This document shows, in pieces, positions 46,424 to 64,000 of a stretch of 64,000 bases of DNA. The number at the start of each line of letters is the position of its first letter. Positions within the stretch are counted from its first letter, which is position 1. Under the pieces are notes generated by a model. The model was not told the origin of the DNA. It did not search any database and saw only the letters and a list, made by a program, of their open reading frames with translations. The stretch comes from Desulfobacterales bacterium (GTDB lineage: Bacteria; Desulfobacterota; Desulfobacteria; Desulfobacterales; UBA2245), in assembly GCA_040771865.1 (NCBI GenBank), contig JAXGZF010000006.1, positions 1 to 64,000 on the forward strand, written 5' to 3'. The translations under genes and the position numbers were made by a program.

Positions 46424-46475
46424 ATGCTCCCGGTGTTCATCAAAACCGACTTTTTCAACAGATCAAACGCCTCAA

Positions 46476-47969: not shown

Positions 47970-48022
47970 AATTAAACTTCGCTGCGTTTTGTGACTTTCG
48001 CCGGGTGACGGGCGCCGGCTTT

Positions 48023-48751
48023 CTATATGGATTTTCCCTCAATAAAATTTTGAACCACCGGGTTTGTTGAAGACCTTACTTCATCCGGGGTCCCCATTTC
48101 AATGATTTTTCCCTGGTACAGCATGGCTATTTTGTTCGCGATCTTGAACGTGGAGGGAATGTCATGGCTGATAATGACGCAGGTTGCCTCCGTTTGCTTC
48201 TGGGTTTCAACGATCAGCCGGTCAATTGCGTCGCACATAACCGGATCGAGACCGGTGGTCGGTTCATCAAAGAGAATGATTTCAGGATCCAGCGCAATGG
48301 CGCGCGCCAAACCCACCCGTTTGCGCATTCCGCCGGAAAGTTCGGACGGCATTTTGTGCGATACGTTTTTCAGGCCCACGCGAAGAAGTTTTTCTTCGGC
48401 AATTTTCATGATTTCCTTGCGAGGCAGCCTCGTGTGCTCGATCAGAGGAAAGGCGACATTTTCGCCGACGTTCATCGAATCAAACAGCGCCGCAGCCTGA
48501 AACAGCATGCCGAATTTTTTTCGAATATCATTGAGCTTTTTGTCGTCCAGAGAAACGATGTCTATGCCGTTTACATAGATATGTCCCGAATCCGGTCTGA
48601 TCAGACCGATCATATGTTTTAAGAGAACGCTTTTGCCGCCGCCGCTCTGGCCGATGATAACGGTAATTTTGCCTTTTTCGATTTCAAGGTCCAGATGATC
48701 GAGGACAACCTGTCCTTTGAATGCTTTTGAAACCTGTTCGAGTCGGATCAT
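48023..48751 (-). CDS. mlaF: MlaF-type ABC ATPase
   Basis: GQSGGGKS, LSGGMRKRVGLARA, DEPTTGLDP. Confidence 0.92.
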   Translation of the reverse strand: MIRLEQVSKAFKGQVVLDHLDLEIEKGKITVIIGQSGGGKSVLLKHMIGLIRPDSGHIYVNGIDIVSLDDKKLNDIRKKFGMLFQAAALFDSMNVGENVAFPLIEHTRLPRKEIMKIAEEKLLRVGLKNVSHKMPSELSGGMRKRVGLARAIALDPEIILFDEPTTGLDPVMCDAIDRLIVETQKQTEATCVIISHDIPSTFKIANKIAMLYQGKIIEMGTPDEVRSSTNPVVQNFIEGKSI

Positions 48752-49521
48752 CAGAACATCAACGCGGTGAGAATGTAATCGCTGATTAAAATGGAAACCG
48801 AAGCGTAAACAACCGCTTCGGTGGTGGCTTTTCCGACTCCCTCCGCACCGCCGGTGGTATAAAACCCTTTGTAAGTGCCGATCAGAGAAAGGATCAGCCC
48901 AAAGAACGCCGATTTGATAAGCCCGTTCGTTATATCGTCCATATCCACGAATTCGACGATTCTGGCCATGAAAATTCCGGAATTGATTCCCAGAAGATGG
49001 ACGCCTACAAAATATCCTCCCACAACGCCGATAAAATCGGCAAGAATGGTTAATATCGGAACCATTAAAACCGCTGCCATTATTCTTGGCACGATCAGGT
49101 ACTGGACGGGATTGACGGACATGGTATAAAGTGCGTCCACCTGCTCCGTCACTTTCATAGTTCCAAGTTCTGCGGCCATGGCCGATCCGGCCCTGCCCGT
49201 CACCATCAGCGCTGTAAATACCGGGCCGAGTTCGCGCGTCAGAGACAGGGCGACCGTTGCGCCCACGAGGCTCTCTCCGCCGAACATTCTGAAACCGTAA
49301 TAGGTTTGAAGCGCAAGGACCATTCCGGCAAAGGCGGCGGTAATCATCACGACCGAAAGCGATTGAACGCCGACAAACTCCATCTGCTTGGCTATCAGGC
49401 GCAGGCGCAGGGGGGGGCGCACCAGCCAGGTCAGGGCGGAAAGGAAAAGCAGCATAATTTTACCGGATTCCTCAATGAAGAGCTTGATGGGTCGTCCGGC
49501 GAGTTCAAGAAAGTATATCAT
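48751..49521 (-). CDS. mlaE: MlaE-type ABC permease
   Basis: RELGPV, GSAMAAELGTMKVTEQVDA, GAEGVG.ATT. Confidence 0.94.
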   Translation of the reverse strand: MIYFLELAGRPIKLFIEESGKIMLLFLSALTWLVRPPLRLRLIAKQMEFVGVQSLSVVMITAAFAGMVLALQTYYGFRMFGGESLVGATVALSLTRELGPVFTALMVTGRAGSAMAAELGTMKVTEQVDALYTMSVNPVQYLIVPRIMAAVLMVPILTILADFIGVVGGYFVGVHLLGINSGIFMARIVEFVDMDDITNGLIKSAFFGLILSLIGTYKGFYTTGGAEGVGKATTEAVVYASVSILISDYILTALMF

Positions 49522-49835
49522 TCGATGTTAACAAAAACGGTAATTTAGATTTTGGTTTTCGAATCTCAATATATTTTAATTCAAATTTGCTATAGGAAAT
49601 GTTTCCGGCAAAGTCAAGGACAAGCGCTTTCCAGACAGCGCGATTGCGTATCCTGAATGGCGGGGCTTTGATTTCGCCTTGCGGCGGGTCCGAAAATATA
49701 ATAAAGATGATCGATCATTTCAACAGCCTGTTAAAGCGGTTGAAAACAGCGTTGCGGGTTTACCCGTGGATGGATAATTGTTTTACCTGAAACTAAGAGG
49801 ATAAAAATTCCGGAGTTGCTCCAGAATATCATTTC

Positions 49836-51020
49836 ATGGACCTGAAAAATAAAATGGAAAACAGCGGAAAAGATCCGGTTCTTCGTCTGCTCAGTGAGGA
49901 CAAGGAAATTCTAGTCGTGGGCACCGCGCATGTTTCAAAGCAAAGCGCCGAACTCGTGGCCCGCGTCATCGAATCGGAAAAACCGGACACCGTATGCGTG
50001 GAGCTGTGTGATTCCCGTTACCAGGCCATCAGCCAGAAAGACCGATGGCGAAATATGGACATCATCAAGGTGATCAAGGAGAAAAAGACATTTTTGCTTC
50101 TGGCCAACCTTCTGCTGGCTTCCTTTCAAAAGCGCATCGCCCGGCAACTGGATATAAAGCCCGGACAGGAAATGATTCAGGCCATTTACAGCGCGAAGTC
50201 CGCTAACGCCGCCGTCTGTCCGGTGGATCGGGATATCCGGATTACCCTGTCCCGGACCTGGCGCCTGATGCGCTTCCGCGATAAGATTAAACTGTTTGTC
50301 GAGCTCATCGGGTCGGCGGCTGAGACCCCGAATATCCGGCAGGAGGATGTCGAAAGAATGAAGCAGGAGGATGCGCTGGAGTCCATTCTGGCCGAGGTGG
50401 AAAAAGAACTTCCCGCGCTTCGAAATATTCTCATCGATGAGCGGGATCAGTATCTTGCCCAGAAAATACGCACCGCTCCGGGGAAAAAAATCGTTGCGGT
50501 TGTCGGAGCCGGCCATGTTCCGGGCATACAGAGATACTGGCATCAGGATATTGACACCGCCAGTCTGGAAGTGCTTCCTCCCAAAGGAAAACTAGGAAAA
50601 ACGCTGAAATGGATTATTCCTGCGGCAATCCTGATGTTCATCGCCGGCGGCTTTTATGCCGGCGGTTTCCGTACAGGGGCCGATATGGTCAAGTGGTGGT
50701 TTCTCGCGAACGGAATTCTGGCGGGCGCCGGAGCCATGGCTGCTTTCGCGCATCCATTGACCGTCATTTCGTCGGTGCTGGCGGCCCCTCTGACCTCCTT
50801 GAATCCGATGATCGCGGCCGGATGGGTATCGGGCCTGGTGGAGGCGTTCTCCCGCAAACCCAGGGTCAGGGATCTGGAAAGCCTGTCCGAAGACATTCTT
50901 TCCATCAAGGGTTTCTGGCGCAACAAGGTCACCCGGATTCTGCTGGTGGTGGTATTTACCAACCTCGGCAGTTCCCTGGGCACGTTCGTTGCCATTCCTC
51001 TAATGGTTAAAGCTTTTTGA
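49836..51020 (+). CDS. TraB/PrgY/GumN-family protein
   Basis: VGTAHVS, VCVELC, PGQEM, ERD, VVGAGH; C-terminal TM helices. Confidence 0.9.
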   Translation: MDLKNKMENSGKDPVLRLLSEDKEILVVGTAHVSKQSAELVARVIESEKPDTVCVELCDSRYQAISQKDRWRNMDIIKVIKEKKTFLLLANLLLASFQKRIARQLDIKPGQEMIQAIYSAKSANAAVCPVDRDIRITLSRTWRLMRFRDKIKLFVELIGSAAETPNIRQEDVERMKQEDALESILAEVEKELPALRNILIDERDQYLAQKIRTAPGKKIVAVVGAGHVPGIQRYWHQDIDTASLEVLPPKGKLGKTLKWIIPAAILMFIAGGFYAGGFRTGADMVKWWFLANGILAGAGAMAAFAHPLTVISSVLAAPLTSLNPMIAAGWVSGLVEAFSRKPRVRDLESLSEDILSIKGFWRNKVTRILLVVVFTNLGSSLGTFVAIPLMVKAF

Positions 51021-51030
51021 TTCCCGGCTT

Positions 51031-51843
51031 CTATTGAACTGATATCGGAGTTGACAATATTTTTACGACCCATCGCTCGCCGGAGGCGCCGCTATCGCAA
51101 GTATGAGGTTGTCTGACCAGCTTTAAGCGGTTTTCCGCAAAAAGCTGAATGCATTCCGGATAAAGCTGCCATTCAAGGTTCAGTCCTTTTTTTCGAACCT
51201 CGTCCAAGGTGTCTTCCGGAAGGATCTCAAAGGATTTCTGACCGATGATGGGTCCGGAATCCTCACCATAATCTATGAAATGCACCGTGCATCCGCCCAC
51301 CTTGCACCCGTACCGGAAGGTGTCTCCGTAGCCGTCCACGCCGGGAAAGGCCGGAAGCAGCGCCGGGTGAATGTTCATAATTCTGGGATGTTGCGGTTTC
51401 GTGTTCACCCGGTCGATAAAATACGGGGTCAGAGTTCTCATGAAACCCGCCAGCACAAGCAGGTCAAAGGGATGCGTACTCATAGCCTCAATGAGCTTCG
51501 CCTCCGCTACAGCCCGGGTCAGCATGAAGGTTTCAACCTTGGCCGGGTCGGCATCCGGACCAAACAGCCGGGTTTTGGAAACTGCTTCCGCAAGATCGAA
51601 ATCCGCTGGAATCAGTTCAGGGGATGCTTGGTTTTTGACATCCCGGAAGATCTCTCGGTAATCGACCACAAAGCTTGGAATCGAATGTCGCTGCGCCCGC
51701 GCAAGACCCCCCGCCTTCGGATTGTCCGATCCCACAAAAACCATTTCCGCATCAATTGCGCCCGCCTCGCAGGCATCGATGATGGCCTGCAGGTTGGTGC
51801 CGCCGCCTGAAATCAATGCGCCGATTCGAATCTTTTTGTCCAT
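51031..51843 (-). CDS. purN: Phosphoribosylglycinamide formyltransferase
   Basis: LISGGGTNLQA, LAGFMR, NIHPALLP, GCTVHF...DSGPII. Confidence 0.94.
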   Translation of the reverse strand: MDKKIRIGALISGGGTNLQAIIDACEAGAIDAEMVFVGSDNPKAGGLARAQRHSIPSFVVDYREIFRDVKNQASPELIPADFDLAEAVSKTRLFGPDADPAKVETFMLTRAVAEAKLIEAMSTHPFDLLVLAGFMRTLTPYFIDRVNTKPQHPRIMNIHPALLPAFPGVDGYGDTFRYGCKVGGCTVHFIDYGEDSGPIIGQKSFEILPEDTLDEVRKKGLNLEWQLYPECIQLFAENRLKLVRQPHTCDSGASGERWVVKILSTPISVQ

Positions 51844-52135
51844 GGCATTTTCCTTTTCGCCGTCCGTGCCCGAAATATCGTTTGGTATTTTTTCTCCGCA
51901 ACCGTTAACAAAAGCGGGAACGGGTGTCAATTGCCAAGGTGAAAGCGCTGTTCGACAGCTTTTGCATGTTCACCCGGCAGAACATCTTATTTCAGGGCAG
52001 AGCTGTGATCCGATGAATTTTTTATCGCCAGATGGTCGCTTCGCTGCTAAAATGCAAATCTATTCGAATCGAAGACAGCCGACGCACCCAAAATAATGAT
52101 TTTTCAATTTTTTTGATTTTCTGAAGGAAAATTTA

Positions 52136-52798
52136 TTGAAAATAGTTGATTTAAGTCACACGATTTATCCGGCCATGCCGGTATACCCCGGTACGCCTTC
52201 TCCTGTGATGAAGACGGTTTTTGGCATCGATGCACACGGTTTTTTAGAAAAGCAGATCACCCTCTGTTCCCATACCGGCACGCACATCGACGCGTCCGCG
52301 CACATGCTTGAGGGTGGGAAAACCCTGGATCAGCTGCCGATCGACAGATTTTCGGGCAGGGCCTTTGTATTCGATGCAACCCGGATCAGTAACCCCTTCA
52401 TCGATGTGCGTGACCTTGAGCCCTTTCAGGATGCGCTGGAAATCTGCGACTTTATGTTGCTGTATACCGGATGGAGCAGATTCTGGGGAACCCAAAAATA
52501 TTTTCTGGAATATCCGGCGCTCGCCGAAGACGCCGCAGCCTGGCTCGGCCGCTTTGATCTGAAGGGAATCGGCATGGATACGATTTCGGCAGACCGGCAC
52601 GATTCCGTTGATTATCCGGTTCATAAGCTTCTGTTCGGCTGCGGAATGATCGTGATTGAAAACCTGACCGGTCTTGACTGGCTGTTGCATCGGTATTTTA
52701 TTTTTTTGTGTTTTCCGCTGAAAATCGAACATGCCGAAGGATCTCCGGTTCGAGCGGTGGCGATGATTGACGATTCAATTGAAAGACGGAAGGATTAA
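52136..52798 (+). CDS. Cyclase / kynurenine formamidase-like metal hydrolase
   Basis: VDLSH, HTGTHIDA, IENL, GSPVRA. Confidence 0.9.
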   Translation: MKIVDLSHTIYPAMPVYPGTPSPVMKTVFGIDAHGFLEKQITLCSHTGTHIDASAHMLEGGKTLDQLPIDRFSGRAFVFDATRISNPFIDVRDLEPFQDALEICDFMLLYTGWSRFWGTQKYFLEYPALAEDAAAWLGRFDLKGIGMDTISADRHDSVDYPVHKLLFGCGMIVIENLTGLDWLLHRYFIFLCFPLKIEHAEGSPVRAVAMIDDSIERRKD

Positions 52799-52802
52799 AA
52801 AC

Positions 52803-53564
52803 ATGCCGAACAACCATGTAGAAAACCATTCCGAAGGCGTGAAATCCGACGAAGTTCCTGCCGCGACACAGCAGGAGGACACCGGAGCTGATTTTGCTTC
52901 AAAGCCGGAACCCGGAGGCCGTTGGCGCTGGGCAGTTATTCTTGGGCTTGCCCTGGTCGTTCTTGCAGGCTTGTCCGCCTGGTGGATCCATCGTTACATC
53001 TATGCGCCCCGGTTTACCCCCACGCAGCTGGATCAGCGGGAACGGGAAATTCTGAATAAAAAGCTTCAAAAATTTGAAAAAGCGGTTCAAGGTACGACGC
53101 CTCGCTCAGATGCAGCAAAAAAGGATGATTCCCTTCGCTCAGAGCCCGAGGCTTACACCGAGGCCGGAGCGGATCGCACCATTCATTTTACGGAAAAAGA
53201 GATCAACGCCCTGATCGCGAACCAGCCGGAAATAGCGCAGCGCCTGGCCATTGATTTATCGGACGATCTGATCAGCATCAAGGTGCTGATGCCCATGGAC
53301 AAGGATATCCTGTTTCTCGGCGGAAAAACCCTGCGGCTTCACGCGGGTCTATCGGTACGCTTTGAAAACGGAAAACCGGAGGTGGCGCTTCAGGGAATCA
53401 GCCTCGGAGGCATTCCGCTTCCCAATGCCTGGCTGGGAAATCTGAAATATAAAAACCTGGTTAAGGAGTTTGGTTCTCAGGAAGGATTCTGGAAACTCTT
53501 TGATGAAGGCGTCGCCGATATCAAGATTTCCCAGGGCGAAATACAGATCCGTCTGAAAGAGTGA
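52803..53564 (+). CDS. Single-TM hypothetical protein
   Basis: TM helix; FTEKEINALI, ISLGGIPLPNAW. Confidence 0.7.
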   Translation: MPNNHVENHSEGVKSDEVPAATQQEDTGADFASKPEPGGRWRWAVILGLALVVLAGLSAWWIHRYIYAPRFTPTQLDQREREILNKKLQKFEKAVQGTTPRSDAAKKDDSLRSEPEAYTEAGADRTIHFTEKEINALIANQPEIAQRLAIDLSDDLISIKVLMPMDKDILFLGGKTLRLHAGLSVRFENGKPEVALQGISLGGIPLPNAWLGNLKYKNLVKEFGSQEGFWKLFDEGVADIKISQGEIQIRLKE

Positions 53565-53624
53565 TGATGCGGAGCCGGAGCAATGGACGTTCAAATTCCG
53601 GCCTGAAATCGTTCCGGGAATCCC

Positions 53625-55769
53625 TTAGAAAGCGATTCGCCACGTGGCAATAAAGCTTCGCCCAGGTTCTTTGAGAACGATTCCCCGAGATGTAGAAAGA
53701 TAATCATCATAGGCTGCGTCGGCCATATTCTTGGCTGTCAGAACGATGTCGTGCCATGTATTTTCAATTTTAAAACGGTAGCCGATACTGGCGTTCAGAA
53801 TCGCCCAACCGCTGCTTTCTTCTGTTCCAGGCGGAACCCGATCCTGATCCGCAGCCCACTGAAGTTCCAGCTGGCTCCAAAAATCGTTGCGGTTTTCATA
53901 TCTTATTCCAGTCATTCCGTTTAGCGGCGGTATATCGGCAAGATCCTCATCCCTGGCGGTATCCCTGCCCTGGGCATAGGCCAGGTTGGCATAAAGCATC
54001 CAATCGGGCGAAAAGCGCCACCTCATTTCAAGTTCGGAACCAAAGATTTCAGCCGAACTGACATTTTCGTTCTGGTACAGGACATCGCTTTTCTTTTCCG
54101 CAACGATAAGGTCTTCAAGAAAGTTGGCAAAGACTCCGGCGCTGAGATCAAACGCGGCGGTCTTGCAATGAAGGCCGTATTCGAAAAAAATGGATCGCTC
54201 GGAATCCAAATCGGGGTTTCCCTTCTGAACGATCTGCCCGGCAAGCGTCAGATACTGAAAACGCTCCAGTATATTGGGCGCCCGGTAGCTTGAAGCCGCC
54301 AGAGCGGTCATGGACCAGTGCGGGGCGAATTCCCAAGCCGCACCAACATGAGCGTTCCAGCTTACATCCTCCTCGGCGCCGCTTTGCCAAAGGATCGGGT
54401 TGGAAACAGAGGGCGACGGTTTCACAATCCAAGCATACGACGAATCGTTTTCAACCCTGATGTAATCGATTCGTCCTCCGAAATTCAGGCTTAATCGATC
54501 ATGAATTTTCCAGTTGTCTTCGCAAAAAATTCCTCCGGAAAATTCATCCGCATTCGGCGTGGGCTGATTTTGGCCGAACGCGCCGGAGCGATAAAAATAT
54601 TGACGTATTGATTCCATTTGCCAATTCCAGGCGTCGACGCCGAAAACAAGCTGATGAGAATCGATATCCAGAACATTCCGACATTGAACGCCCCATGTCC
54701 TGTGATCGGCCGAAGGGCGAATCTCCAGCACTGAGGACGAAGGATGATCGATTCGAACATTGCGGTCTATTGAGAGAAAATAAGCGTTGATTCGGGTTTC
54801 AGAAATCGGACCTTCATCGGGATCAATTATGTGAGACAGACGAAACGACTGCTGACGCGTATCCGGATAGGTGACGTCGGCCTGGGACGGCAGAGATGCC
54901 GTGCCGCTGCCGGGAATGCCGATCTCGTTTCCCGTGGATTGCTGCACCTCAATCTCGGTGATGTTGAGATCGTTCCATTTCCGGCTGGCCGCAAGCTTGA
55001 GATAGGCGTCTTCGAACTGACTGTTGCCGACCTCGTTGCCGTCGCCGTCCTCGTAGCTGTCGTGATCCCGACGGCCGGCCGAGCCGTATACCCAGGCATT
55101 CGGAGCATTATAGGAAATATTGCCATAAATATCTGATCCCAAAGGATTGTCGGAGATGCTTCCAATGAATTCGCCGTGCCATTGCGGCGTGGGTTCAAAC
55201 TCGCCTTTTTTGGTGAGGATGTTCACAACGCCGCCGATAGATCCCGAACCATAAAGGGCGCTGACCGGTCCTTTGAGAATTTCGATGCTCTGAATTTCCA
55301 TCGGGTTGACAAAGCCGAATCGCGCATTGATATCCGTGGCGGTGTTGACGCGGCTTCCATCCAAGAGCAGAACGACCGAATCGCGACTCAGGCCGCGGAT
55401 ATTGATATCCGATCCCCAGGGAGAGTCGGAAGTGATCAGAACTCCCGGACTTCTAGCCGCCGCATCGGAAGCGTTGAACGGAAGGTTTTCGAAAATTTCC
55501 TCTGAATCAATCCGGTCCGTTCCTCCCGGAGTTGCGGAAAGCGCGCTTTCCGTTCCGCGGGCGGTGATGATGATTTCATCCATCAGGACGGCCTTGTTCT
55601 CCTGTGTTCGAATGTATGAATCGACATCGGCAGCATGAACCCAGATACATTCAAGCGATCCGAAGAACATAGAGAGGAAAAGAGCAATGTAACTCGGAAT
55701 CAAAATATATCTTCCGAAAAAGAAAGGAACATTAGATAATTTCGTTGAAAGCAGCTTCGAGAAATTCAT
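53625..55769 (-). CDS. TonB-dependent outer-membrane receptor
   Basis: DEIIITA TonB box, NIRGL, IEILKGPVSALYG..GGVVNI, SYRAP, PGR...terminal F; AGGAGG RBS. Confidence 0.93.
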   Translation of the reverse strand: MNFSKLLSTKLSNVPFFFGRYILIPSYIALFLSMFFGSLECIWVHAADVDSYIRTQENKAVLMDEIIITARGTESALSATPGGTDRIDSEEIFENLPFNASDAAARSPGVLITSDSPWGSDINIRGLSRDSVVLLLDGSRVNTATDINARFGFVNPMEIQSIEILKGPVSALYGSGSIGGVVNILTKKGEFEPTPQWHGEFIGSISDNPLGSDIYGNISYNAPNAWVYGSAGRRDHDSYEDGDGNEVGNSQFEDAYLKLAASRKWNDLNITEIEVQQSTGNEIGIPGSGTASLPSQADVTYPDTRQQSFRLSHIIDPDEGPISETRINAYFLSIDRNVRIDHPSSSVLEIRPSADHRTWGVQCRNVLDIDSHQLVFGVDAWNWQMESIRQYFYRSGAFGQNQPTPNADEFSGGIFCEDNWKIHDRLSLNFGGRIDYIRVENDSSYAWIVKPSPSVSNPILWQSGAEEDVSWNAHVGAAWEFAPHWSMTALAASSYRAPNILERFQYLTLAGQIVQKGNPDLDSERSIFFEYGLHCKTAAFDLSAGVFANFLEDLIVAEKKSDVLYQNENVSSAEIFGSELEMRWRFSPDWMLYANLAYAQGRDTARDEDLADIPPLNGMTGIRYENRNDFWSQLELQWAADQDRVPPGTEESSGWAILNASIGYRFKIENTWHDIVLTAKNMADAAYDDYLSTSRGIVLKEPGRSFIATWRIAF

Positions 55770-56409
55770 GCAATCCTCCTTTTTGTCCGGCCTGAATCTC
55801 CTGGTAGCCTGATAGCATTGGCTGCTTGAACAGAAGAACCCGATCACTCGCCAAAGGGATTTCATCCAGATTGTGAGTGACCAGCAGCCATGATGTTTCA
55901 TGGTATTTCTGGCGCATGTATTTGATGATCCGTTGCTTGGAAGCGACGTCAATTGATTTGAACGGCTCGTCCATCATGATAAACTCCGGGCGGGTAATTA
56001 AGGCTCGAACAAGGGAGACCTTCTGTTTCATTCCACCCGAAATTTCATGCGGATAGTATTTTTCAAATCCTTTGAGACCTGAGACCTCCATCCATTCGGA
56101 AAAAAGAGCCTGCGTTCTTGAATTCATCGCAGCGCCGGATATCTTGAATGGATAAAAAATGTTTTCCTCAACCGTTTTGTACCAGAACAGCCCAGGATCC
56201 TGAAAAACCGAGGCAATGGATTGTGTCTGAAAAATAAAATTTCCCTGGAATTGCGTATCCAGCCCCGACAGGATTCTGATGAGCGTTGTTTTACCGGCGC
56301 CGGACGGCGCAAAGATACAGATCTTTTCCCCTTGAGATATTTGGAAAGACAGGCGGTCAATTATGGCCCGGCGATTGAATTGTTTGCGAATATTTTGAAC
56401 GTTCAGCAT
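55732..56409 (-). CDS. ABC ATPase (TauB/SsuB-like)
   Basis: APSGAGKTT, YPHEISGGMKQ, MDEPF, VTH. Confidence 0.9.
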   Translation of the reverse strand: MLNVQNIRKQFNRRAIIDRLSFQISQGEKICIFAPSGAGKTTLIRILSGLDTQFQGNFIFQTQSIASVFQDPGLFWYKTVEENIFYPFKISGAAMNSRTQALFSEWMEVSGLKGFEKYYPHEISGGMKQKVSLVRALITRPEFIMMDEPFKSIDVASKQRIIKYMRQKYHETSWLLVTHNLDEIPLASDRVLLFKQPMLSGYQEIQAGQKGGLHEFLEAAFNEII

Positions 56410-56411
56410 AT

Positions 56412-57164
56412 TTATGCGTCCGGATAAAGGTACTTTCCAAAAAAAACGACAAACGTTGTATGAGCGACGATCTGAAAGCAAACGATCAGAACTACCATCG
56501 CCAACAGATAAAAATAGACGGCCTGCATATTGAAATAGATTCGGGAGGCATTGAGAAGATATCCAAGACCGTTTTCCGCGGCCAGAAATTCCCCCAGAAT
56601 TACGATCTTCAGTGAAAACACCATTCCGGTCGTTGTATTGCTTTTCATGGCAGGGATTAAGGCCGGTATGTAGATGTCCCGTATCACATTCCGCATCGTC
56701 CCTCTGAAAGAGCGAACCATGTCTATGAGAAGATTGTTTTTTTTCAGCAGGCAGTTGGAGGTGTGAATCGCCATCAGCGGGGATACGAGAGAAACCGCGA
56801 GAACGACAGGCACTGTGTTTCCGACGCCGAAAATCAGCAAAAAAATGATTCCCAGAAGTGTGCCGGGAAGGACCTGAAGCAGGGCCAGAAAGGTTTCCAC
56901 GGAGTCATGAATTTTTAAGGCAAAAGCAAACATTCCGACAAGAGTTCCGCAGGCAAAGGCGATGAGAAAGCTGAGGAAGGTGCGCAGTATCGTGAGTTTG
57001 AGGTTGAATAGAAAGCTCCGGTCGGCCAGCGCACTGATGTTTTGAATGATGTGGACCGGCGAAGGCACGACCGTATCCCTGAATGCGATCGAAAGAAACC
57101 ACCATCCCGCCAGAAACAATAATAATGCGGTCAGATTATTGCGGACCGGTATAAAAAAATTCAT
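56412..57164 (-). CDS. ABC permease (TauC/SsuC-like)
   Basis: VPSP, hydrophobic helices, GEFL...GLGY; start uncertain (57164 or 57176). Confidence 0.85.
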   Translation of the reverse strand: MNFFIPVRNNLTALLLFLAGWWFLSIAFRDTVVPSPVHIIQNISALADRSFLFNLKLTILRTFLSFLIAFACGTLVGMFAFALKIHDSVETFLALLQVLPGTLLGIIFLLIFGVGNTVPVVLAVSLVSPLMAIHTSNCLLKKNNLLIDMVRSFRGTMRNVIRDIYIPALIPAMKSNTTTGMVFSLKIVILGEFLAAENGLGYLLNASRIYFNMQAVYFYLLAMVVLIVCFQIVAHTTFVVFFGKYLYPDA

Positions 57165-58116
57165 TAAAATCTTCATCGAGCGGATTCCCAATGGTCTGGT
57201 AATAATTTTTTATTTCGTTTTTAAGCTGATCCGAGTTCAAGCTGCGGAAGGCGACGCCTCTGATAGCAGAGCAAAGGAGATCTTCTGAAAACTGAAAATA
57301 AGGCCCTGCCTTTTCGCAGGCCGCTTCGGGAAAGGAAGAAATCCATTCAACGGCTTTAGCCAGTTCATGATTCAGCCTTTGAATATAGAATGAATTGTTT
57401 TCAGCCCAGTCGCGTTTTGCAAAGAGTCCGATTTGCGGATAGCCGATGCCGACGCCAGTGTGCCTGGCCCACAATTCCTTGTAACTCATTGAAACATGGA
57501 TTCCCGGAACGCCTCCTGCCAGGCTCGCGAATGGTTCCGGAATAGCGGCTGCGTTAATTCGACCGTTTTGAAGCAGACGCAAAGCCGCGTCTGGATCCGT
57601 ATATCCGATTTGAACATCCTCTTTCCATCTGAGCTTTTCCTGTTCGATAAAATACCGGGTCGTTTCTTCCACCGGACATCCTGGAAAGGGGAGGTATATT
57701 TTTTCACCTTTCAAATCGTCGAAACCGGAAATGTTCTTTTTCCGGGCAACCAGATAGGTCAGGCCTGAAACATAGGAATTAAGAATCACGACCGGTATCT
57801 GCTGCCTATAGAATGAAACCCCAACGGACAGCCCCGTGGAGAGAATAGAAATCTCGTCTCTCAAAAAAAGACAGTGGGCCTGCGAGTGGTTGACGAAAAT
57901 GTGAACACGGGTTCCGGGAAGATTTTCCGCGGCAATAATCAGGGGTATGGATGTCGGCGTGGCAGGGGCGTAAATCGTGATTGGGTCGTTTTTTTCGGAT
58001 GCAGCCGAAGCTGATGCAAATAAAATTAAAATGATCAGGCCCGGCAAAATCTTGCCGCATAAATGCCGTCGAGGGCATGCGCAGAACAAGCGGCGGATGA
58101 ATCTTCCGACTTTCAT
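57136..58116 (-). CDS. ABC substrate-binding protein (SsuA/TauA/NMT1-like fold)
   Basis: Signal region, DLKGEKI, AAAIPEPF; operon context. Confidence 0.8.
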   Translation of the reverse strand: MKVGRFIRRLFCACPRRHLCGKILPGLIILILFASASAASEKNDPITIYAPATPTSIPLIIAAENLPGTRVHIFVNHSQAHCLFLRDEISILSTGLSVGVSFYRQQIPVVILNSYVSGLTYLVARKKNISGFDDLKGEKIYLPFPGCPVEETTRYFIEQEKLRWKEDVQIGYTDPDAALRLLQNGRINAAAIPEPFASLAGGVPGIHVSMSYKELWARHTGVGIGYPQIGLFAKRDWAENNSFYIQRLNHELAKAVEWISSFPEAACEKAGPYFQFSEDLLCSAIRGVAFRSLNSDQLKNEIKNYYQTIGNPLDEDFNEFFYTGPQ

Positions 58117-58355
58117 ATCATGTGCGACTTGACTTTGACGTTCTGAAGATTGCCCAGTTTGCCGGTCATCGCGCCGATCTGGTCGGTGGTTGCTTCGACA
58201 ATCAGGGCGATGACGCTGAGTTCTTTTTCCCGGTAAGGGATTCCCATTCTTCCGATGATAATATCTGAATACTGGCCGAGAATGTTGTTGACCGCAGGCG
58301 CGGATATTTTCCGCTGTTCTATGATGATGCTGATGACGCCGATCCGTTTTTCCAT
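58113..58355 (-). CDS. TM1266-family putative iron-only hydrogenase system regulator
   Basis: MEKRIGVISIIIE...VN.IL..Y.D.IIGRMGIPY...MTGKLG...VKVK. Confidence 0.88.
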   Translation of the reverse strand: MEKRIGVISIIIEQRKISAPAVNNILGQYSDIIIGRMGIPYREKELSVIALIVEATTDQIGAMTGKLGNLQNVKVKSHMI

Positions 58356-58490
58356 TTTTATGAATTCCCTTGTCGATGTTTGATTCAGCGGCAAGAGAGG
58401 GGGGTGTTTGGCGAGTATAAGGCGCTGCGATGGGGCAGCCCTCTGGTTCAGATTGCGTCCTCCCCTCAGGCCGGGTTGTGTTATTCGGAA

Positions 58491-58820
58491 TTAGAAGTGA
58501 AGCTTAACACCTTTTTCTCTTAGTGGTTTCAGATACATGGAGCGGTCCGTATACTCCGTATGAAGAAGATGATGGGCGAGATGAGAATTCGGTTCGTGAA
58601 GGTAATTCTTGTAAATCTCAGCCACCGCCTTGCTGTCCTGGGATTTCCGAACCGGCATCTTGGTGTCCTGCAGATATACCGAGTCCTGGCGTTGTTTCAG
58701 GTAGTCTTTCGCCTGGGCAAAGGATTCTTTGGCGAAATTCCAGCTGTAAAGCGTGGCGCCGGCGGCAAATCCGGCCATTTTTATAAACTGACGCCGTGTA
58801 ACCTGTATGATCGAATTCAT
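58491..58820 (-). CDS. hydB: Periplasmic [FeFe] hydrogenase small subunit with Tat signal
   Basis: TRRQFIK twin-arginine motif; RQ..VY..D, RKSQD, AHHLLHT; GGAGG RBS. Confidence 0.92.
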   Translation of the reverse strand: MNSIIQVTRRQFIKMAGFAAGATLYSWNFAKESFAQAKDYLKQRQDSVYLQDTKMPVRKSQDSKAVAEIYKNYLHEPNSHLAHHLLHTEYTDRSMYLKPLREKGVKLHF

Positions 58821-58834
58821 TGCAACCTCCTTTC

Positions 58835-60088
58835 TTAAGCCGTTTTCCGAATGCTGAATCTTCGATTCATTCGGGAAACGATCTGTCTGAAGAGGGATGA
58901 TGTACGTACATCCGGCATCAGGGGCTGTCCTCCGCCGTTGACGCACCCGCCCGGGCAGGTCATCACCTCGATGAAATGATACTTGCATTTGCCTTGCCGG
59001 ATTTGTTCAATGACAGGCGCTGCGTTGGCTACGCCGCTGATGACGCAAACGTTCAGGTCGCCGAATTTGGGGACCGGAATCGTTGCCTCCTTGACCCCCT
59101 TGTATGAACGAACCGCCTTGATATCCGGATCGGACAGTTTTTCCCCGGACACCGCCTCATAGGCGAATCGAAGCGCTGCCTCCATGACGCCGCCGCTGGA
59201 TCCGAAAATGGTTGCCGCTCCCGTAGATTCACCCAATACAAACTCCGGCTTTTCTTCGGGAAGACTGTTATAATCGATGCCGGCCTGCTTGATCATCCAA
59301 GCCAGTTCCCGGGTGTTGATCGTCGCGTCGATGTCGCGGTATCCGCTGTCCGCCAGCTCGGGCCTGAGTCCTTCATATTTCTTGGCGATGCAGGGCATGA
59401 TCGACACCGTGTAAATCTTTTTGGGGTGGGCATGCGTCAGTTCCGCGCCGTAGGTTTTACTTAGGGCGCCCAGCATTCCCACAGGAGATTTGCACGAGGA
59501 CAGATTTGGAATCATATCCGGAAAAAAAGTTTCCACAAATTTGATCCAGCCCGGACAGCAGGAAGTGAATTGCGGAAGGGGTTTTTTGATTTTCCCGGTC
59601 AGGCGGCCGAGAAGTTCGGTGCCTTCTTCCAGTATTGTCAGGTCCGCTGTCATCTGGTTGTCCCAGATGTGGTCAAAACCCAGTCTTTTAAGGGCGGCAA
59701 ACATCTTTCCCTCGGCGCAGGTTCCCACCGGCTGGCCGAATGCCTCCGCCAGACCAAAGCGGACGGCTGGCGCCGGCATTGAAACCACGATTTTATCCGG
59801 GTCTTTTAATGCCGCAAAAATTTCATCGACAAAGGAAACGCCTTCGTAGATCGCGCCGTACGGGCAGTTGATCAGGCACTGGCCGCAATTCACACATGCG
59901 GCGGGCGAAACAACGGCGCGAGGCCCATCATCGGCTCCGACCGGCTGAATTACGCCGGTCGGACAGACGTCCTGGCACGCTCCGCATGCCTGACATTTGT
60001 CCGCGTCCACCTGAACAAAGTAAACGTTATCGCTATCCATGCACCAAGGTGCTCCGACCTTTGTGCCCACATTTTCTACAATCCTCAT
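58835..60088 (-). CDS. hydA: [FeFe] hydrogenase large subunit (2x[4Fe-4S] plus H-domain)
   Basis: CxxCxxCxxxCP twice; FTSCCPGW, MPCIAKK, EVMTCPGGCVNGGGQP. Confidence 0.97.
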   Translation of the reverse strand: MRIVENVGTKVGAPWCMDSDNVYFVQVDADKCQACGACQDVCPTGVIQPVGADDGPRAVVSPAACVNCGQCLINCPYGAIYEGVSFVDEIFAALKDPDKIVVSMPAPAVRFGLAEAFGQPVGTCAEGKMFAALKRLGFDHIWDNQMTADLTILEEGTELLGRLTGKIKKPLPQFTSCCPGWIKFVETFFPDMIPNLSSCKSPVGMLGALSKTYGAELTHAHPKKIYTVSIMPCIAKKYEGLRPELADSGYRDIDATINTRELAWMIKQAGIDYNSLPEEKPEFVLGESTGAATIFGSSGGVMEAALRFAYEAVSGEKLSDPDIKAVRSYKGVKEATIPVPKFGDLNVCVISGVANAAPVIEQIRQGKCKYHFIEVMTCPGGCVNGGGQPLMPDVRTSSLFRQIVSRMNRRFSIRKTA

Positions 60089-60396
60089 AATTTCCTCCTG
60101 TTAAGTTAGACATCATTTATCAGCTTGATATCATGAATAATTATAATCGCATTTATCACCCCCTTTGCGAATTGCCCGCCGAAAAATCGACGAGGCATAT
60201 CTTTTTCGAACGAATGCTGATTTGAATGGAAATGGGTCGAAAATGGATGGATGAAGCCCGCCAGAACAACTGAAGAGTTGACGAAAGGCAGCAGATATTA
60301 TAAAAAGAGTTGGAGCTTCTGTTCAAGGAGCTTCATCCACCAGGAGAGGCGGCATTCAACTCTGGCCGGAGGAAACCGCCTCTCCGTTTTTGTTAT

Positions 60397-60422
60397 TTAT
60401 GTCTTTTATGACATAATGTCAA
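60397..60422 (-). promoter_or_regulatory. Palindromic operator-like site next to a -35 box upstream of hydA
   Basis: TTATGTC-N6-GACATAA (60397-60416) immediately after minus-strand TTGACA (60422-60417); -10 box weak. Confidence 0.5.
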
Positions 60423-61005
60423 CTGTATCCCTTTTCAAGCAAACGTTTTTCAAATACAGCGAATGCGTGTAAAGCAGCTGAAAAAATTTTGTATCTGGAG
60501 AATTGATGGGGGGTACGTCGAAAGGTGAAGATTGGCGGAACAGCCTCAAACGATGTAATGGGAAGTCGGGGGGGCTATGTTCGATCCCCCATAAATACTT
60601 GCGCAATATAAATGTGAACTTTCCCATGAATGCAAGACAAGAACGACGCGTTCCCATCAAATCACCATAGAAGGACAACCTTTGCATAAGCTGTTACCCA
60701 TCTGGAAAAGGAAAAGATGAAATTTGAGCGAAGACCTTCGCAATCAAAATTCTACCTAAATAGAAATTGTTTATCTAATTGATTAATAAATGGCTGTCAA
60801 GAGGGATTTTTTGAATGTTGGTTGGGTCTCTGGAATGAAATGCACATGAATTCGTTGATATTTGGAAATAAAGATCTATTGGGGTCGTCCTTTATTAAGG
60901 CGCTGATATTATTATAAACATTCCTTTATAACCGATAAAGGTATCTTGCCAACAGCGCAAGGCTGTGGTACTTTTTCAGAAAAGGTTCTTGAAGGGCTTT
61001 TTGTT

Positions 61006-61320
61006 ATGCAAAAGGAGTTCTGGACAATTCGCGAAGTGATCGAATCTTTCAGCGTGGAAGAGACTTTTCTCGACGATCTCGAAAAAGAGGATATTCTATG
61101 TCCCGTTTTCCGGGCGGAATCGCCGGAAAAATTGTTTTCAGCCGATGATCTCGAGAAGCTGCGCCTGTGCAAAATTCTGGTCGAGGACATGCAGGTCAAT
61201 CTGCCGGGCGTGGAAATCATTCTTCGCCTTCGTCAGAACATGTTTGAAATGCGAAGGCAGTTTGACGACATTCTGGAGGATATGAGCCGCCGCATTCAGG
61301 AAATGCTCAAGAACGAGTAG
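61006..61320 (+). CDS. cbpM: CbpM/MerR-like chaperone modulator
   Basis: F...DLEKLR....L.EDM.VNLPGVEIIL.LR. Confidence 0.8.
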   Translation: MQKEFWTIREVIESFSVEETFLDDLEKEDILCPVFRAESPEKLFSADDLEKLRLCKILVEDMQVNLPGVEIILRLRQNMFEMRRQFDDILEDMSRRIQEMLKNE

Positions 61321-61324
61321 CGCA

Positions 61325-62446
61325 TCACAGTTTAAGACCCGCTCGAGGGCCCTCTCCGTACAAATGATCCATTTCTTTTACAGCTTGAAGTGTTTTTTCA
61401 TCCTGGGTTTTCGGCACCCGCACCTGAAGCCTGACCAGAAAATCTCCCCGTTTTTGGGTTTTGGGGTTGACTGCGCCCTTGCCCTTCAGCCGCAAAGTCT
61501 GACCATTCTGGCTCTGAGGCGGAATCTTGAGGGTGACCGGACCGTCAATGGTCGGGATCAGGATCCTGGCCCCGGCCATGATTTCGGAAAGCGTCACCGG
61601 AACCTCCATGAGCAGATCGTCGTCTTCCCGTTTCAAAAAAGGATGCGGTTTGAGGTGAATGATCAGATAGAGATCTCCGGGCGTTTGAATGCCGGGTCCG
61701 GATTCCCCCTTTCCGGCCACCCGAACCCGCGACCCTTCACGGACTCCCGCCGGTATCTCCACGCGGATTTTTTCGGTTTTTGATCGCTGTCCGCTGCCGC
61801 CGCACCCGGAGCAGACCGTGATGTTTTTTCCCGTTCCGCGGCACTGCGGACAGGTCCGGGTGAATTCCATGGGGCCGTCGGCTACGCTGATTTTTCCCGT
61901 TCCGCGGCAGGCAGAACAAAAAGCCGCGCCCGCCGTGGTGCGAATGCCGGTGCCGTTGCAGTCGATGCAAACATAGGGTTTTTCAATGGCGATCTGGGTG
62001 GAAACTCCCTTCAGAGAACTGATCAAATCGATGGTCATTCCGGTTTCGATATCGCTTCCCTTCCGGGAGCGGCGTGACGAAAAGTCGGCGCCCTGAGAGA
62101 AATCAAATATATTTCCGAAGATATCCTCGTAGCTTCGATAGCGCCCGAAGCCGGGCTCGGCATCGGGACCCTGGTCTTGCGACCATTGCCGGTATTCCCT
62201 GGCTTTTTCCGCGTCAAATCCGGCTCTGAGCCCGTCTTCACCGAACTCATCGTAAATTTTACGTTTTTCAGAATTGCTCAGGCATTCGTAGGCTGCCGAT
62301 GCATCCTTGAACTTCTGTTCAGCCTCCCGGTTTCCGGGGTTCAAATCCGGGTGCCACTTGCGTGCGAGCCGCCGATAGGCCTTTTTAACATCATCGGGTT
62401 TCGCATCCTTTGAAACGCCCAGAATTTCGTAATAGTCCTTTGCCAT
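61325..62446 (-). CDS. dnaJ: DnaJ-family co-chaperone with zinc finger
   Basis: [11 protein letters not shown], four CxxCxGxG repeats, DnaJ C-terminal domain. Confidence 0.88.
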
Positions 62447-62575
62447 AATTGTCTCCGCCCACAGGATATCATTTTGTGCAGATTATATTGAAAGGTATAT
62501 TGAGCGCCCTTAAAATGTCAAATAATTACGGGAACAATTCTGCTTCAGGATTTAACCTGAACGGTCTTGCCCCGG

Positions 62576-62604
62576 TTGACTTCCTTCCGGCTTTCCTCTA
62601 TGAT
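62576..62604 (+). promoter_or_regulatory. Sigma70-like promoter of thyX
   Basis: TTGACT-17 nt-TATGAT. Confidence 0.7.
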
Positions 62605-62653
62605 GTCCGTAATTTGATTTATTATAACCGGCTGGATTCTTGAGGAATTTATC

Positions 62654-63268
62654 ATGAAAATAATCGAGCAGAGCTGGAGCTGGCTGCAAAAGCCGCCCCG
62701 GCCTCTGGAGCTGATCGAACGGGCGGGCCGAACCTGTTATCAGTCCGAAGAACGCATCGGTCCGGGCACTTCGGAAAAATTCGCCCGCATGCTGGTCAGC
62801 CGCGGCCACGAGTCGGTCATTGAGCATTGTTCTGCATCGATTCGCTTTATCACTAACCGGGGTGTTACCCATGAACTGGTTCGACACCGTCTGGCGTCTT
62901 ATTCCCAGGAATCCACCCGATATGTTCGCTACGATCGGATGGAATTTATTCAACCTGTCTGGTGGAACACCTGGAGCCCGGAAGAGCAGCAGACCTGGCT
63001 GAAAGCCATGGAAACCGCCGAGTCTTGCTATCGGCATCTGCTGGAAAGCGGAAGTTCTCCGGAACAGGCACGCGAGGTACTGCCGCAATCCCTCAAAACC
63101 GAAATCGTCATGACCGCCAATCTTCGGGAATGGCGTTCCGTATTTCATCTGAGATGCAGCCAGGCGGCTCATCCCCAGATCCGCGTCCTGATGCGGGATT
63201 GTCTTCGAGGATTTTCCCGGGAAATTCCGGTTCTGTTTGAAGACCTTGCGGAAAAATTTTCCGATTAA
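62654..63268 (+). CDS. thyX: Flavin-dependent thymidylate synthase
   Basis: GHESVIEH, HELVRHR..SYSQESTRY, AREVLP, NLREW. Confidence 0.96.
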   Translation: MKIIEQSWSWLQKPPRPLELIERAGRTCYQSEERIGPGTSEKFARMLVSRGHESVIEHCSASIRFITNRGVTHELVRHRLASYSQESTRYVRYDRMEFIQPVWWNTWSPEEQQTWLKAMETAESCYRHLLESGSSPEQAREVLPQSLKTEIVMTANLREWRSVFHLRCSQAAHPQIRVLMRDCLRGFSREIPVLFEDLAEKFSD

Positions 63269-63317
63269 TCGCAACCCCCCTTTTTCCGGCCGGGAAAGTC
63301 CGGAATTCAGAATATTC

Positions 63318-64000
63318 ATGATTGCCATTGAAAATCTCAGCAAAAGCTACGGCGGCCAGAGCCTTTTTGAAGACGTCTCCGTAAAGATCAATTCCCGGGA
63401 GCGCATCGGCCTGGTCGGCCGAAACGGCGACGGCAAAACCACACTTTTTCGAATGATCATCGGCGAGGAAGCACCGGATTCAGGAGTCATTTCGGTTCCG
63501 AAAAACTATTGTCTGGGTTATGTGCGGCAGGAAATCGCGTTTGCCGAGGATACGGTACTGAAAGAGGCTATGCGGGGCCTGCCCGTTTCCGAAAATGACC
63601 AGACATGGAAGGCGGAAAAGGTTCTCTTCGGGCTGGGCTTCAGCGAAAAGGATTTGAATCGCAGACCGGATGAATTTTCCGGCGGATTCCAGGTCCGCCT
63701 CAACCTGGCCAGGGTGCTTGTTTCCGAGCCGGATCTGATTCTTCTCGATGAGCCCACCAATTATCTGGACATTACCGCCATTCGATGGATGGAGCGCTTT
63801 CTGGTTTCCTGGCCCAGAGAACTGCTTCTCATCACGCATGACCGAAGTTTTATGGACCGAGTGATTACCCATACCCTGGGTATCCATCGGAAAAAAATGC
63901 GCAAGATCGAGGGCCCGACTGAAAAATACTATGCCCAGATCGCCCAGGAAGAAGAAATTCATGAAAAGACCCGAATCAATGATGAGCGGCGGAAAAAAGA
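63318..64000 (+). CDS. ABC-F family ATPase (partial, runs off the window)
   Basis: Manual translation: MIAIENLSKSYG...GRNGDGKTT...FSGGFQVRL...LDEPTNYLD...THDR. Confidence 0.92.
   Translation, partial: MIAIENLSKSYGGQSLFEDVSVKINSRERIGLVGRNGDGKTTLFRMIIGEEAPDSGVISVPKNYCLGYVRQEIAFAEDTVLKEAMRGLPVSENDQTWKAEKVLFGLGFSEKDLNRRPDEFSGGFQVRLNLARVLVSEPDLILLDEPTNYLDITAIRWMERFLVSWPRELLLITHDRSFMDRVITHTLGIHRKKMRKIEGPTEKYYAQIAQEEEIHEKTRINDERRKK

Follow-up and report, generated by a model that had tools for sequence, protein, structure and literature searches.

The large subunit of [FeFe] hydrogenases, HydA, is inactive without the [2Fe] subcluster of its H-cluster, and HydE, HydF and HydG are the only known makers of that subcluster (PMC6212873). 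In living E. coli and Synechocystis, apo-HydA becomes active without these maturases once a synthetic [2Fe] cofactor is supplied (PMC6282530, PMC6243476, PMC8159234), and lipoyl-H-protein has been reported as the source of the H-cluster's dithiomethylamine bridge (PMC11736057). In a 2011 profiling study, 191 of 218 genomes with a hydrogenase large subunit had HydF, and "a few species" of bacteria were without all three maturases (PMC3226654). Active [FeFe] hydrogenase without HydE, HydF and HydG is a stated open problem, which concerns most hydrogenase-bearing archaea, Giardia and Entamoeba (PMC11216029). An "alternative pathway" has been proposed for maturase-less archaea and protists, and the word "transporter" occurs zero times in the available part of the paper that reports it (PMC11216029). 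Here we describe a seven-gene block in which an [FeFe] hydrogenase is followed by a TonB-dependent receptor and an ATP-binding cassette (ABC) importer. It lies in a stretch of 64,000 nucleotides (positions 1 to 64,000 of contig JAXGZF010000006.1, assembly GCA_040771865.1; hereafter the window) from a Desulfobacterales bacterium of the UBA2245 lineage. Homologues of this transporter are linked to hydA across genomes and are in near mutual exclusion with the maturases, and the transporter probably serves hydrogenase maturation in genomes that lack them.

All seven genes lie on the minus strand in the order hydA, hydB, TM1266-family gene, substrate-binding protein (SBP), permease, ATPase and TonB-dependent receptor. 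This is the order given in the original prediction, made from the letters of the window, and its description of overlapping or abutting genes also holds. hydA (58835..60088, 417 amino acids, AGGAGG upstream of its ATG) matches Fe_hyd_lg_C (PF02906, 292 bits) and scores 455.5 bits with TIGR02512, above the cut-off of 405.95, which places it among group A [FeFe] hydrogenases. It has two ferredoxin-type cluster motifs and an H-domain; FTSCCPGW, MPCIAKKYE and EVMTCPGGCVNGGGQP, which we take to be the three H-cluster binding motifs, are all intact with their cysteines. hydB (58491..58820 within an open reading frame (ORF) at 58491-58988; Fe_hyd_SSU, PF02256, 74.9 bits) probably starts at M57 (position 58820). 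The N-terminus would then be MNSIIQVTRRQFIK, presumably a twin-arginine (Tat) signal; read from M57 the protein is MNSIIQVTRRQFIKMAGFAAGA, with RRQFIK after M57. The enzyme is thus predicted to be a Desulfovibrio-type periplasmic HydAB with a separate, Tat-signal-bearing small subunit. The TM1266-family gene (58113..58355 from its ATG, 80 amino acids; ORF 58113-58394) scores 111.9 bits with TIGR03959 (cut-off 60.8) and 112 bits with PF21699; its product matches PDB entry 2nzc (E 1.2e-14) and has no signal peptide. With the ATG at 58355, the predicted 135-nt spacer between hydB and this gene stands. The family's usual neighbours are presumably hydE and hydG; no such neighbourhood exists here, as the genome has no maturases. 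The SBP gene (57136..58116, a weak NMT1_2 match) overlaps the TM1266 stop by 4 nt and is followed by the genes of a type I permease (56412..57191; BPD_transp_1, PF00528, 42.3 bits) and an ATPase (55732..56481; ABC_tran, PF00005, 84.7 bits). The receptor (53625..55769 within ORF 53625-55952) probably starts at M62 (position 55769), which gives 714 amino acids. It has a Plug domain (PF07715, 77.5 bits), a barrel (PF00593, 148.2 bits), a TonB-box-like DEIIITA and a C-terminus (...RIAF) that ends in phenylalanine; with three TonB_C matches over cut-off in the genome, it can be classed as TonB-dependent.

The genome comprises 2,984,333 bases in 13 contigs with no N, and is 98.29% complete with 0.78% contamination. 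The original prediction listed no hydE, hydF or hydG in the window and proposed a search of the whole genome; model searches agree for the window and find none of the three over cut-off anywhere in the genome. The HydE model gave nothing genome-wide at E≤0.001, the HydG model gave no candidate at all, and the HydF model matched only GTPase domains of other proteins (at most 102 bits against a cut-off of 325.55). Genome-wide tblastn with HydE and HydG proteins of two same-order genomes gave no match at E≤0.01; with same-order HydF proteins, its matches were confined to the generic GTPase domain and did not exceed 60 bits. Sub-threshold matches occurred in control genomes with the HydE model (12 of 14) and the HydG model (7 of 14), presumably to BioB-like and ThiH-like relatives, and were absent from the window's genome. 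That genome may therefore also lack BioB-like and ThiH-like radical S-adenosylmethionine (SAM) enzymes, which hints at further cofactor dependence.

Co-occurrence was cross-tabulated in 265 genomes. Within an even sample of 200 Desulfobacterales genomes, the order of the window and of genome G010, HydA occurs in 11. Two of these (G157 and G198) have HydE, HydF and HydG, and a third (G160) has HydE and HydF, with HydG not found; HydE, HydF and HydG are all absent from the remaining eight (G010, G125, G126, G150, G205, G244, G252 and G292). Nine of the 200 genomes have a homologue of the window's receptor that scores at least 550 bits. The receptor stands beside hydA in all eight maturase-less HydA-positive genomes, at 40-50% identity to that of the window, and in none of the three maturase-bearing ones (p = 0.006); it occurs in 8/11 HydA-positive versus 1/189 HydA-negative genomes (p = 3e-11), both values ignoring kinship. 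These eight genomes represent more than a single event, since they include three hydrogenase architectures and their receptors are just 40-50% identical to the window's. Position agrees with occurrence: maturase genes directly adjoin hydA in G157 and G198, and G010 has the same GltD-like and HydA pair followed, in the maturase slot, by SBP, permease, ATPase and receptor. The hydA of G010 lies on a chromosome record of 6,061,752 bp.

The binding protein belongs to a small family, with 63 proteins at E≤0.001 among 3867 candidates, and a locus scan with a 10-row alignment and one genome per species yielded 28 loci. These belong to Desulfobacterales, Exilispira, Brachyspira, Anaerolineae and other Chloroflexi, Moduliflexus and bacterium UASB14; no SBP match was found among 40 relatives of the window's genome (one same-genus, 39 same-order). 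A permease homologue follows the SBP gene in 27 of the 28 loci, and an ATPase homologue is present in 24, the other four ending at contig edges. HydA lies within 10 kb in 17 loci; among the 11 without it, eight have a short flank and three (L009, L017 and L035) have about 10 kb on both sides. The original prediction had proposed that SBP and receptor homologues be checked for co-occurrence with hydA, especially in maturase-less genomes. They are linked to hydA in Desulfobacterales, Chloroflexi, Spirochaetes and Moduliflexus, and the link is strongest where maturases are missing. No maturase is over cut-off in 20 of the 28 SBP-bearing genomes, among them all six from Desulfobacterales and all 13 from Chloroflexi; HydG passes its cut-off in seven genomes, HydF in eight and HydE in seven. 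The full HydEFG set is found in seven genomes (two Exilispira, three Brachyspira, UASB14 and one Moduliflexus), and one further Moduliflexus has HydF and a HydG fragment. In 37 Chloroflexi genomes of the order of G012, HydG is absent, HydA is present in 13, SBP in 12 and both in 11. SBP thus accompanies 11 of 13 HydA-positive and 1 of 24 HydA-negative genomes (Fisher p = 1e-6, ignoring kinship). HydA occurs alone in two genomes, in one of which it is a fragment with a stop codon, and in the lone SBP-only genome the locus is cut by a contig end.

The hydrogenase beside the importer differs between groups: a GltD-like subunit with an M3 HydA in Desulfobacterales, a NuoF-like subunit with an M3 HydA in Chloroflexi, HydA with NuoE/NuoF in Spirochaetes, and a periplasmic HydAB in the window. 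That the link persists when architecture, electron partner and phylum change points to the common element of all [FeFe] hydrogenases, the H-cluster. The 27 transporter-linked HydAs examined all keep the L2 and L3 motifs and have an L1 motif of TSCCP or TSCSP type. The first H-cluster motif is TSCSPGW rather than TSCCPxW in the HydAs of L010, L015, L029, L036, L055, L058, L063 and L069, and this variant is found in maturase-bearing and maturase-less genomes alike. None of the 28 SBP loci contains a TM1266 homologue (tblastn, E≤1e-3); TM1266 goes instead with periplasmic HydAB/receptor loci.

Transport sets vary in composition. Where HydA is cytoplasmic, Chloroflexi loci have the ABC importer and no receptor, and Desulfobacterales have both receptor and importer; several periplasmic HydAB loci have the receptor only. 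The transport parts present match the barriers between the outside and the place where the hydrogenase is assembled, and for periplasmic HydAB crossing of the outer membrane alone may be enough. In G244 and G126, which have periplasmic HydAB, the receptor is present with no importer nearby; the G126 genome measures 2.1 Mb and has the locus on a contig of 2,133,799 bp, and in G244 TM1266 stands between hydB and the receptor. G150 repeats the architecture of the window, split over two contigs. In G125, G205, G252 and G292 the importer beside the receptor has a binding protein of 333-340 amino acids with no Pfam match, a second type remotely homologous to the SBP family of the window (hhalign probability 98.3%, E 1.9e-14). 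Downstream of hydAB-TM1266-receptor in G244 (L057:14494-19166) lie a second receptor, split in two ORFs, a DUF4198 gene and two genes for tetrapyrrole methylases, which look like a separate metal or tetrapyrrole uptake cluster.

A metagenome scan with an 11-row receptor alignment kept 80 loci, 60 of them with a receptor at 400 bits or more; some of the contigs are records already counted as contigs of metagenome-assembled genomes (MAGs), e.g., those of 317,146 and 128,364 bp, which agree in length with contigs of G292 and G162. Among loci with at least 3.5 kb upstream, HydA is found in 21/36 and TM1266 directly before the receptor in 18/36. Both flanks are available for 29 loci, of which 16 have HydA, nine have only the receptor and second-type SBP, two have TM1266 only and two have neither. 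A maturase-like gene occurs in one of the 80 loci, a HydE-like radical SAM gene after the receptor (L133:10511-11611); its product is 43% identical to a Desulfobacterales HydE (222 bits), and its contig also has two hydA genes and TM1266. In a quick receptor tree, hydA-linked rows fall in nearly all subclades and unlinked rows form two. The commonest metagenomic layout is HydA-HydB-(ORF of 184-220 amino acids)-TM1266-receptor, with about 700-900 bp between HydB and TM1266 where the window has its 135-nt spacer. In the two annotated loci (L100:8965-9519 and L104:8777-9439) the product of the gap ORF has 184-220 amino acids and no Pfam match; it could be a further player in maturation or electron transfer.

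Comparison with the sole same-genus genome compared, G029 (99% complete), shows that the block is part of an island (53572..60937) of 7.4 kb that comprises the seven genes and about 850 bp upstream. A single G029 contig matches window positions 45001-53571 and 60938-64000 at 89-91% identity with 85 bp between them, and HydA, TM1266, HydG and SBP were all not found in G029. Because the G029 flanks are contiguous without the block, 53572-60937 was gained or lost as one unit relative to G029, and no maturase gene travelled along. Contigs from two independent studies (anaerobic-digester and wastewater runs) bridge both island junctions, so the placement is real and no assembly chimera. No credible island-less joint was found in the sequencing-run contigs; one joint in a single contig, with 21 letters per side, was disregarded. 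The island is best explained as a self-contained, transferable hydrogenase module with its own cofactor supply in place of maturases.

The part of the island upstream of hydA (60089-60937, about 850 bp) has no long ORF, just two of 73 and 93 amino acids. It holds a weak promoter-like site on the minus strand (60297..60326, TTGAAC-18-TATAAT, 10/12 matches) about 210 nt upstream of hydA, and may be the regulatory region of the module. Promoter and terminator scans showed no excess over shuffled sequence (10 sites versus 8.0 +/- 2.6, and 14 versus 10.1 +/- 3.2, respectively). The terminator scan lists no minus-strand site between hydB and TM1266, and the folding of the spacer there is not notable (z = -1.76). 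Rfam has no match at E≤1 in 53000-61500, hence no riboswitch that would hint at the ligand.

The original prediction proposed a dedicated uptake route for a hydrogenase-related small molecule, which gains support from the linkage and from the absence of hydEFG. An intact hydrogenase has been inherited with an importer that stands where maturases otherwise stand, and supply of the finished [2Fe] unit, or of a late precursor, by this route is the simplest account. H-cluster assembly without HydG, HydE and HydF would stay unexplained if the cargo were a lipoyl or sulfur compound or simply an iron chelate. We put at even chances the specific proposal that the TonB/ABC route imports the ready-made [2Fe] subcluster, or a late precursor, and so replaces HydEFG. 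Apo-HydAB would first be assembled with the Fe-S clusters that it ordinarily has. With energy from the host TonB, the receptor would then draw from the anoxic surroundings a scarce organometallic compound of iron, either the H-cluster's [2Fe] subcluster or a late precursor, produced by HydEFG-bearing neighbours. SBP, permease and ATPase would carry this compound into the cytoplasm, where it would be inserted into apo-HydA before Tat export via the HydB signal, with TM1266 possibly handing it over or sensing it. The identity of the cargo, the direction of the hand-over steps and the role of TM1266 are inferred. At community scale, the [2Fe] subcluster may be a shared good of anoxic communities, imported from neighbours by H-cluster auxotrophs in which hydrogenase and importer form one mobile module, a tentative idea that we rate somewhat below even. 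Such auxotrophs, in an equally tentative extension of that idea, would belong to at least three phyla (Desulfobacterales, Anaerolineae-type Chloroflexi and the window's own lineage) that gave up HydEFG or never acquired it.

Evidence for [2Fe] import includes the retention of all H-cluster motifs by HydA although its 98.29%-complete genome has no HydE, HydG or HydF, and several observations weigh against it. HydEFG is also carried by 8 of the 28 SBP-bearing genomes (seven complete, one partial), so the ABC importer is not confined to maturase-less cells. The ninth receptor genome of the Desulfobacterales sample, G162, has the importer and no HydA was found in it. The three long SBP loci (L009, L017 and L035) have no hydA within about 10 kb, and 13 of the 29 metagenomic receptor loci with both flanks also have none. 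The comparison genomes are mostly MAGs shown with no completeness figure, and searches of the 200-genome sample scored 5-9 candidates per genome. The permease is of type I (a BPD_transp_1 match only), unlike the type II of known metal-chelate uptake systems. Invariant SBP residues include Asp167, Gln228 and several aromatics, with Glu194 near-invariant and no Lys, Arg or Cys; judged from the alignment, this set seems unlike what would first be expected for a dianionic cyanide/carbonyl ligand. Import would further presuppose a natural supply of free [2Fe] compound in usable amounts, a supply that is so far hypothetical. As to the G162 set itself (L067:2805-5735), it has no hydA nearby and is preceded by its own ExbB-like and TonB genes.

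Resemblance to described transporters bears on the first alternative, that an ordinary nutrient (iron chelate, heme, sulfonate or other sulfur compound) is imported, that a HydEFG-independent pathway encoded elsewhere builds the H-cluster and that the linkage is a matter of supply-demand co-regulation. The SBP N-terminus has a hydrophobic core followed by ASA-AS and reads, by eye, as a Sec-type signal peptide. An AlphaFold2 model of the protein (predicted local distance difference test score 89.7) has its best Foldseek matches in 3un6 and 3hn0, uncharacterised binding proteins of ABC-type import, followed by SsuA, TauA, ThiY, Thi5 and PqqT. These two-lobed type II matches comprise both binding proteins and enzymes, at 12-18% identity and TM-scores of 0.6-0.8, with a Foldseek probability of 1.00 for 3un6, 3hn0, 2x26, 6ssy and 9b1u. 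Model and N-terminus together indicate an exported NMT1/SsuA-fold binding protein of a distinct family. In a profile search of the PDB, SsuA matched with E 6.4e-5 and TauA with E 0.0038, and the SsuA family model TIGR01728 gave 34.2 bits, below its cut-off of 163.5. Homologues are named "NitT/TauT family transport system substrate-binding protein" at source, with a close one annotated in Desulfonema ishimotonii, and a protein atlas has only generic NitT/TauT-type clusters. The permease is not of FecCD/BtuC type. Permease and ATPase fall below the sulfonate and taurine models (SsuC 25.1 versus 347; taurine ATPase 110.6 versus 357). Scores with the SaoA/SaoP ABC system models are likewise below cut-off (NF040729, 139.8 versus 360; NF040733, 40.5 versus 295). 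The best NCBIfam match of the receptor is TonB-hemin (TIGR01785) at 220.9 bits, below the cut-off of 316.85; TonB-B12 (101.1 versus 599.7), TonB-siderophore (143.8 versus 223.5) and PqqU (53.3 versus 1200) are also below theirs. In PDB sequence searches the receptor has matches to CirA, FepA and BtuB in its plug and to PhuR in a stretch of its barrel. A FecA-type signalling receptor was considered and rejected: about 20 residues separate the predicted signal cleavage site from the TonB box, which leaves no room for an N-terminal signalling domain.

From these comparisons, neither SBP nor receptor appears fileable under a characterised transporter, and the clustering with B12, heme or sulfonate importers that would have spoken against the original prediction does not occur, as every such NCBIfam model is below cut-off. 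Import of an ordinary nutrient is unlikely on this and other evidence. The receptor is nearest to heme and siderophore models (220.9 and 143.8 bits) and the SBP to SsuA-type models, with fold matches that include SsuA, TauA and ThiY, yet none of those family scores reaches its cut-off. In favour of this alternative, hydA is missing near some receptor loci, and an unknown alternative maturation has already been proposed for maturase-less archaea (PMC11216029). However, maturase-bearing cells should need bulk iron and sulfur equally, and the receptor is present in 0/3 of them versus 8/8 of the maturase-less; no other conserved gene stands beside hydA in maturase-less loci to encode a new pathway, and the link spans three hydrogenase architectures and at least three phyla.

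A second alternative shares the linkage and exclusion data with [2Fe] import: the transporter would bring in an earlier building block, such as a mononuclear Fe(CO)x(CN) species, a donor of cyanide or CO, or the dithiomethylamine moiety; unrecognised enzymes would complete it, or completion would occur spontaneously on HydA or TM1266. NitT/TauT-type importers take their name from small anions, and the neighbours of one hydA-linked importer agree with this alternative. In L059:749-4327, genes for glycine-cleavage P-protein subunits and a lipoate-protein ligase adjoin the importer on the opposite strand, and lipoyl-H-protein is implicated in dithiomethylamine synthesis (PMC11736057). L060 and L061 have the same hydrogenase-receptor-ATPase order as L059, and L061 has ORFs at the gcvP/lplA position that match by length only. 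The gcvP/lplA neighbours are, however, annotated in one locus (L059) of one small clade. HydE and HydF are missing too, so a mononuclear synthon would have no known dimerising or bridging route, and small anions do not usually need a TonB-dependent receptor. We regard import of an early building block as quite improbable. The weakest alternative, that the maturases were unassembled or unbinned, or that the hydrogenase genes survive as inactive relics, with an unrelated transporter next to them, can draw on the many MAGs of unstated completeness and on G160, which shows that HydG can escape detection where HydE and HydF do not, but is very improbable given a 98.29%-complete genome with no N, the G010 hydA on its 6,061,752-bp chromosome record and the G126 hydA on its 2,133,799-bp contig of a 2.1-Mb genome, HydG in 0/37 genomes of one order, H-cluster motifs kept in 27/27 transporter-linked HydAs and a linkage that recurs in many independent contexts.

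Import of the [2Fe] unit or a late precursor gives maturase-less bacteria a concrete candidate answer, with named genes whose distribution excludes maturases, and makes maturase-less [FeFe] hydrogenases testable at the bench. No description of natural H-cluster uptake or cross-feeding, or of a hydA-linked TonB/ABC system, was found in literature coverage that excludes most subscription journals; the Pelobacter carbinolicus genome paper was set aside as unrelated, as maturases are present there. TonB/ABC cofactor salvage is machinery of a known kind, and the proposed cargo and role are new. If [2Fe] import is demonstrated, an organometallic cofactor would join the list of cross-fed cofactors, and HydA in a genome without maturases would not mean an inactive enzyme, which would change how hydrogen metabolism is inferred. 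It may also help to explain the difficulty of growing such organisms alone, and biotechnology could use the uptake system to load cells with synthetic [2Fe] complexes.

Salvage systems for other metallocofactors follow the same logic. In BtuB/BtuFCD for B12, and in PhuR with its ABC importer for heme, a receptor, binding protein and ABC importer salvage a metallocofactor that the cell cannot make. Such systems have a FecCD-type permease and a class III SBP, whereas the window has a BPD_transp_1 permease and an NMT1/SsuA-fold SBP, B12, heme and siderophore receptor models are below cut-off, and the cargo proposed here is the hydrogenase [2Fe] unit. PqqU and PqqT serve the scavenging of pyrroloquinoline quinone (PQQ), and PqqT has the same SBP fold class; the structure of PqqT with PQQ bound (9b1u) matches the window's SBP (E 4.5e-15, TM 0.66-0.71), which shows that such a fold can bind a cofactor and counts in favour of [2Fe] import. 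Identity to PqqT is only 14-15%, the PqqU model gives 53.3 versus 1200, and the window's system is linked to hydA, not to PQQ enzymes. The window shares its ABC importer type and SBP fold with SsuABC, TauABC and the NitT-TauT group, and differs from SsuABC and TauABC in its attached TonB-dependent receptor and in its link to hydA rather than to sulfonate monooxygenase genes. The hydrogenase resembles the Desulfovibrio-type HydAB, with the same large subunit of two ferredoxin clusters and an H-domain and a separate Tat-signal small subunit; here, however, the genome lacks HydEFG, and TM1266 and the importer follow hydB. With HydE, HydF and HydG the transporter would share a role, delivery of [2Fe] to apo-HydA, and it shares their position next to hydA. 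It has no homology to them, provides transport and not synthesis, and would make the cell dependent on an outside source; the two are mutually exclusive among the HydA-positive genomes of the Desulfobacterales sample. A functional parallel is semi-synthetic maturation, in which an external [2Fe] complex likewise reaches and activates apo-HydA in maturase-less cells (PMC6282530, PMC6243476, PMC8159234). That is a laboratory procedure with high concentrations of synthetic complex and no dedicated transporter, whereas the island in the window would provide a natural, encoded route.

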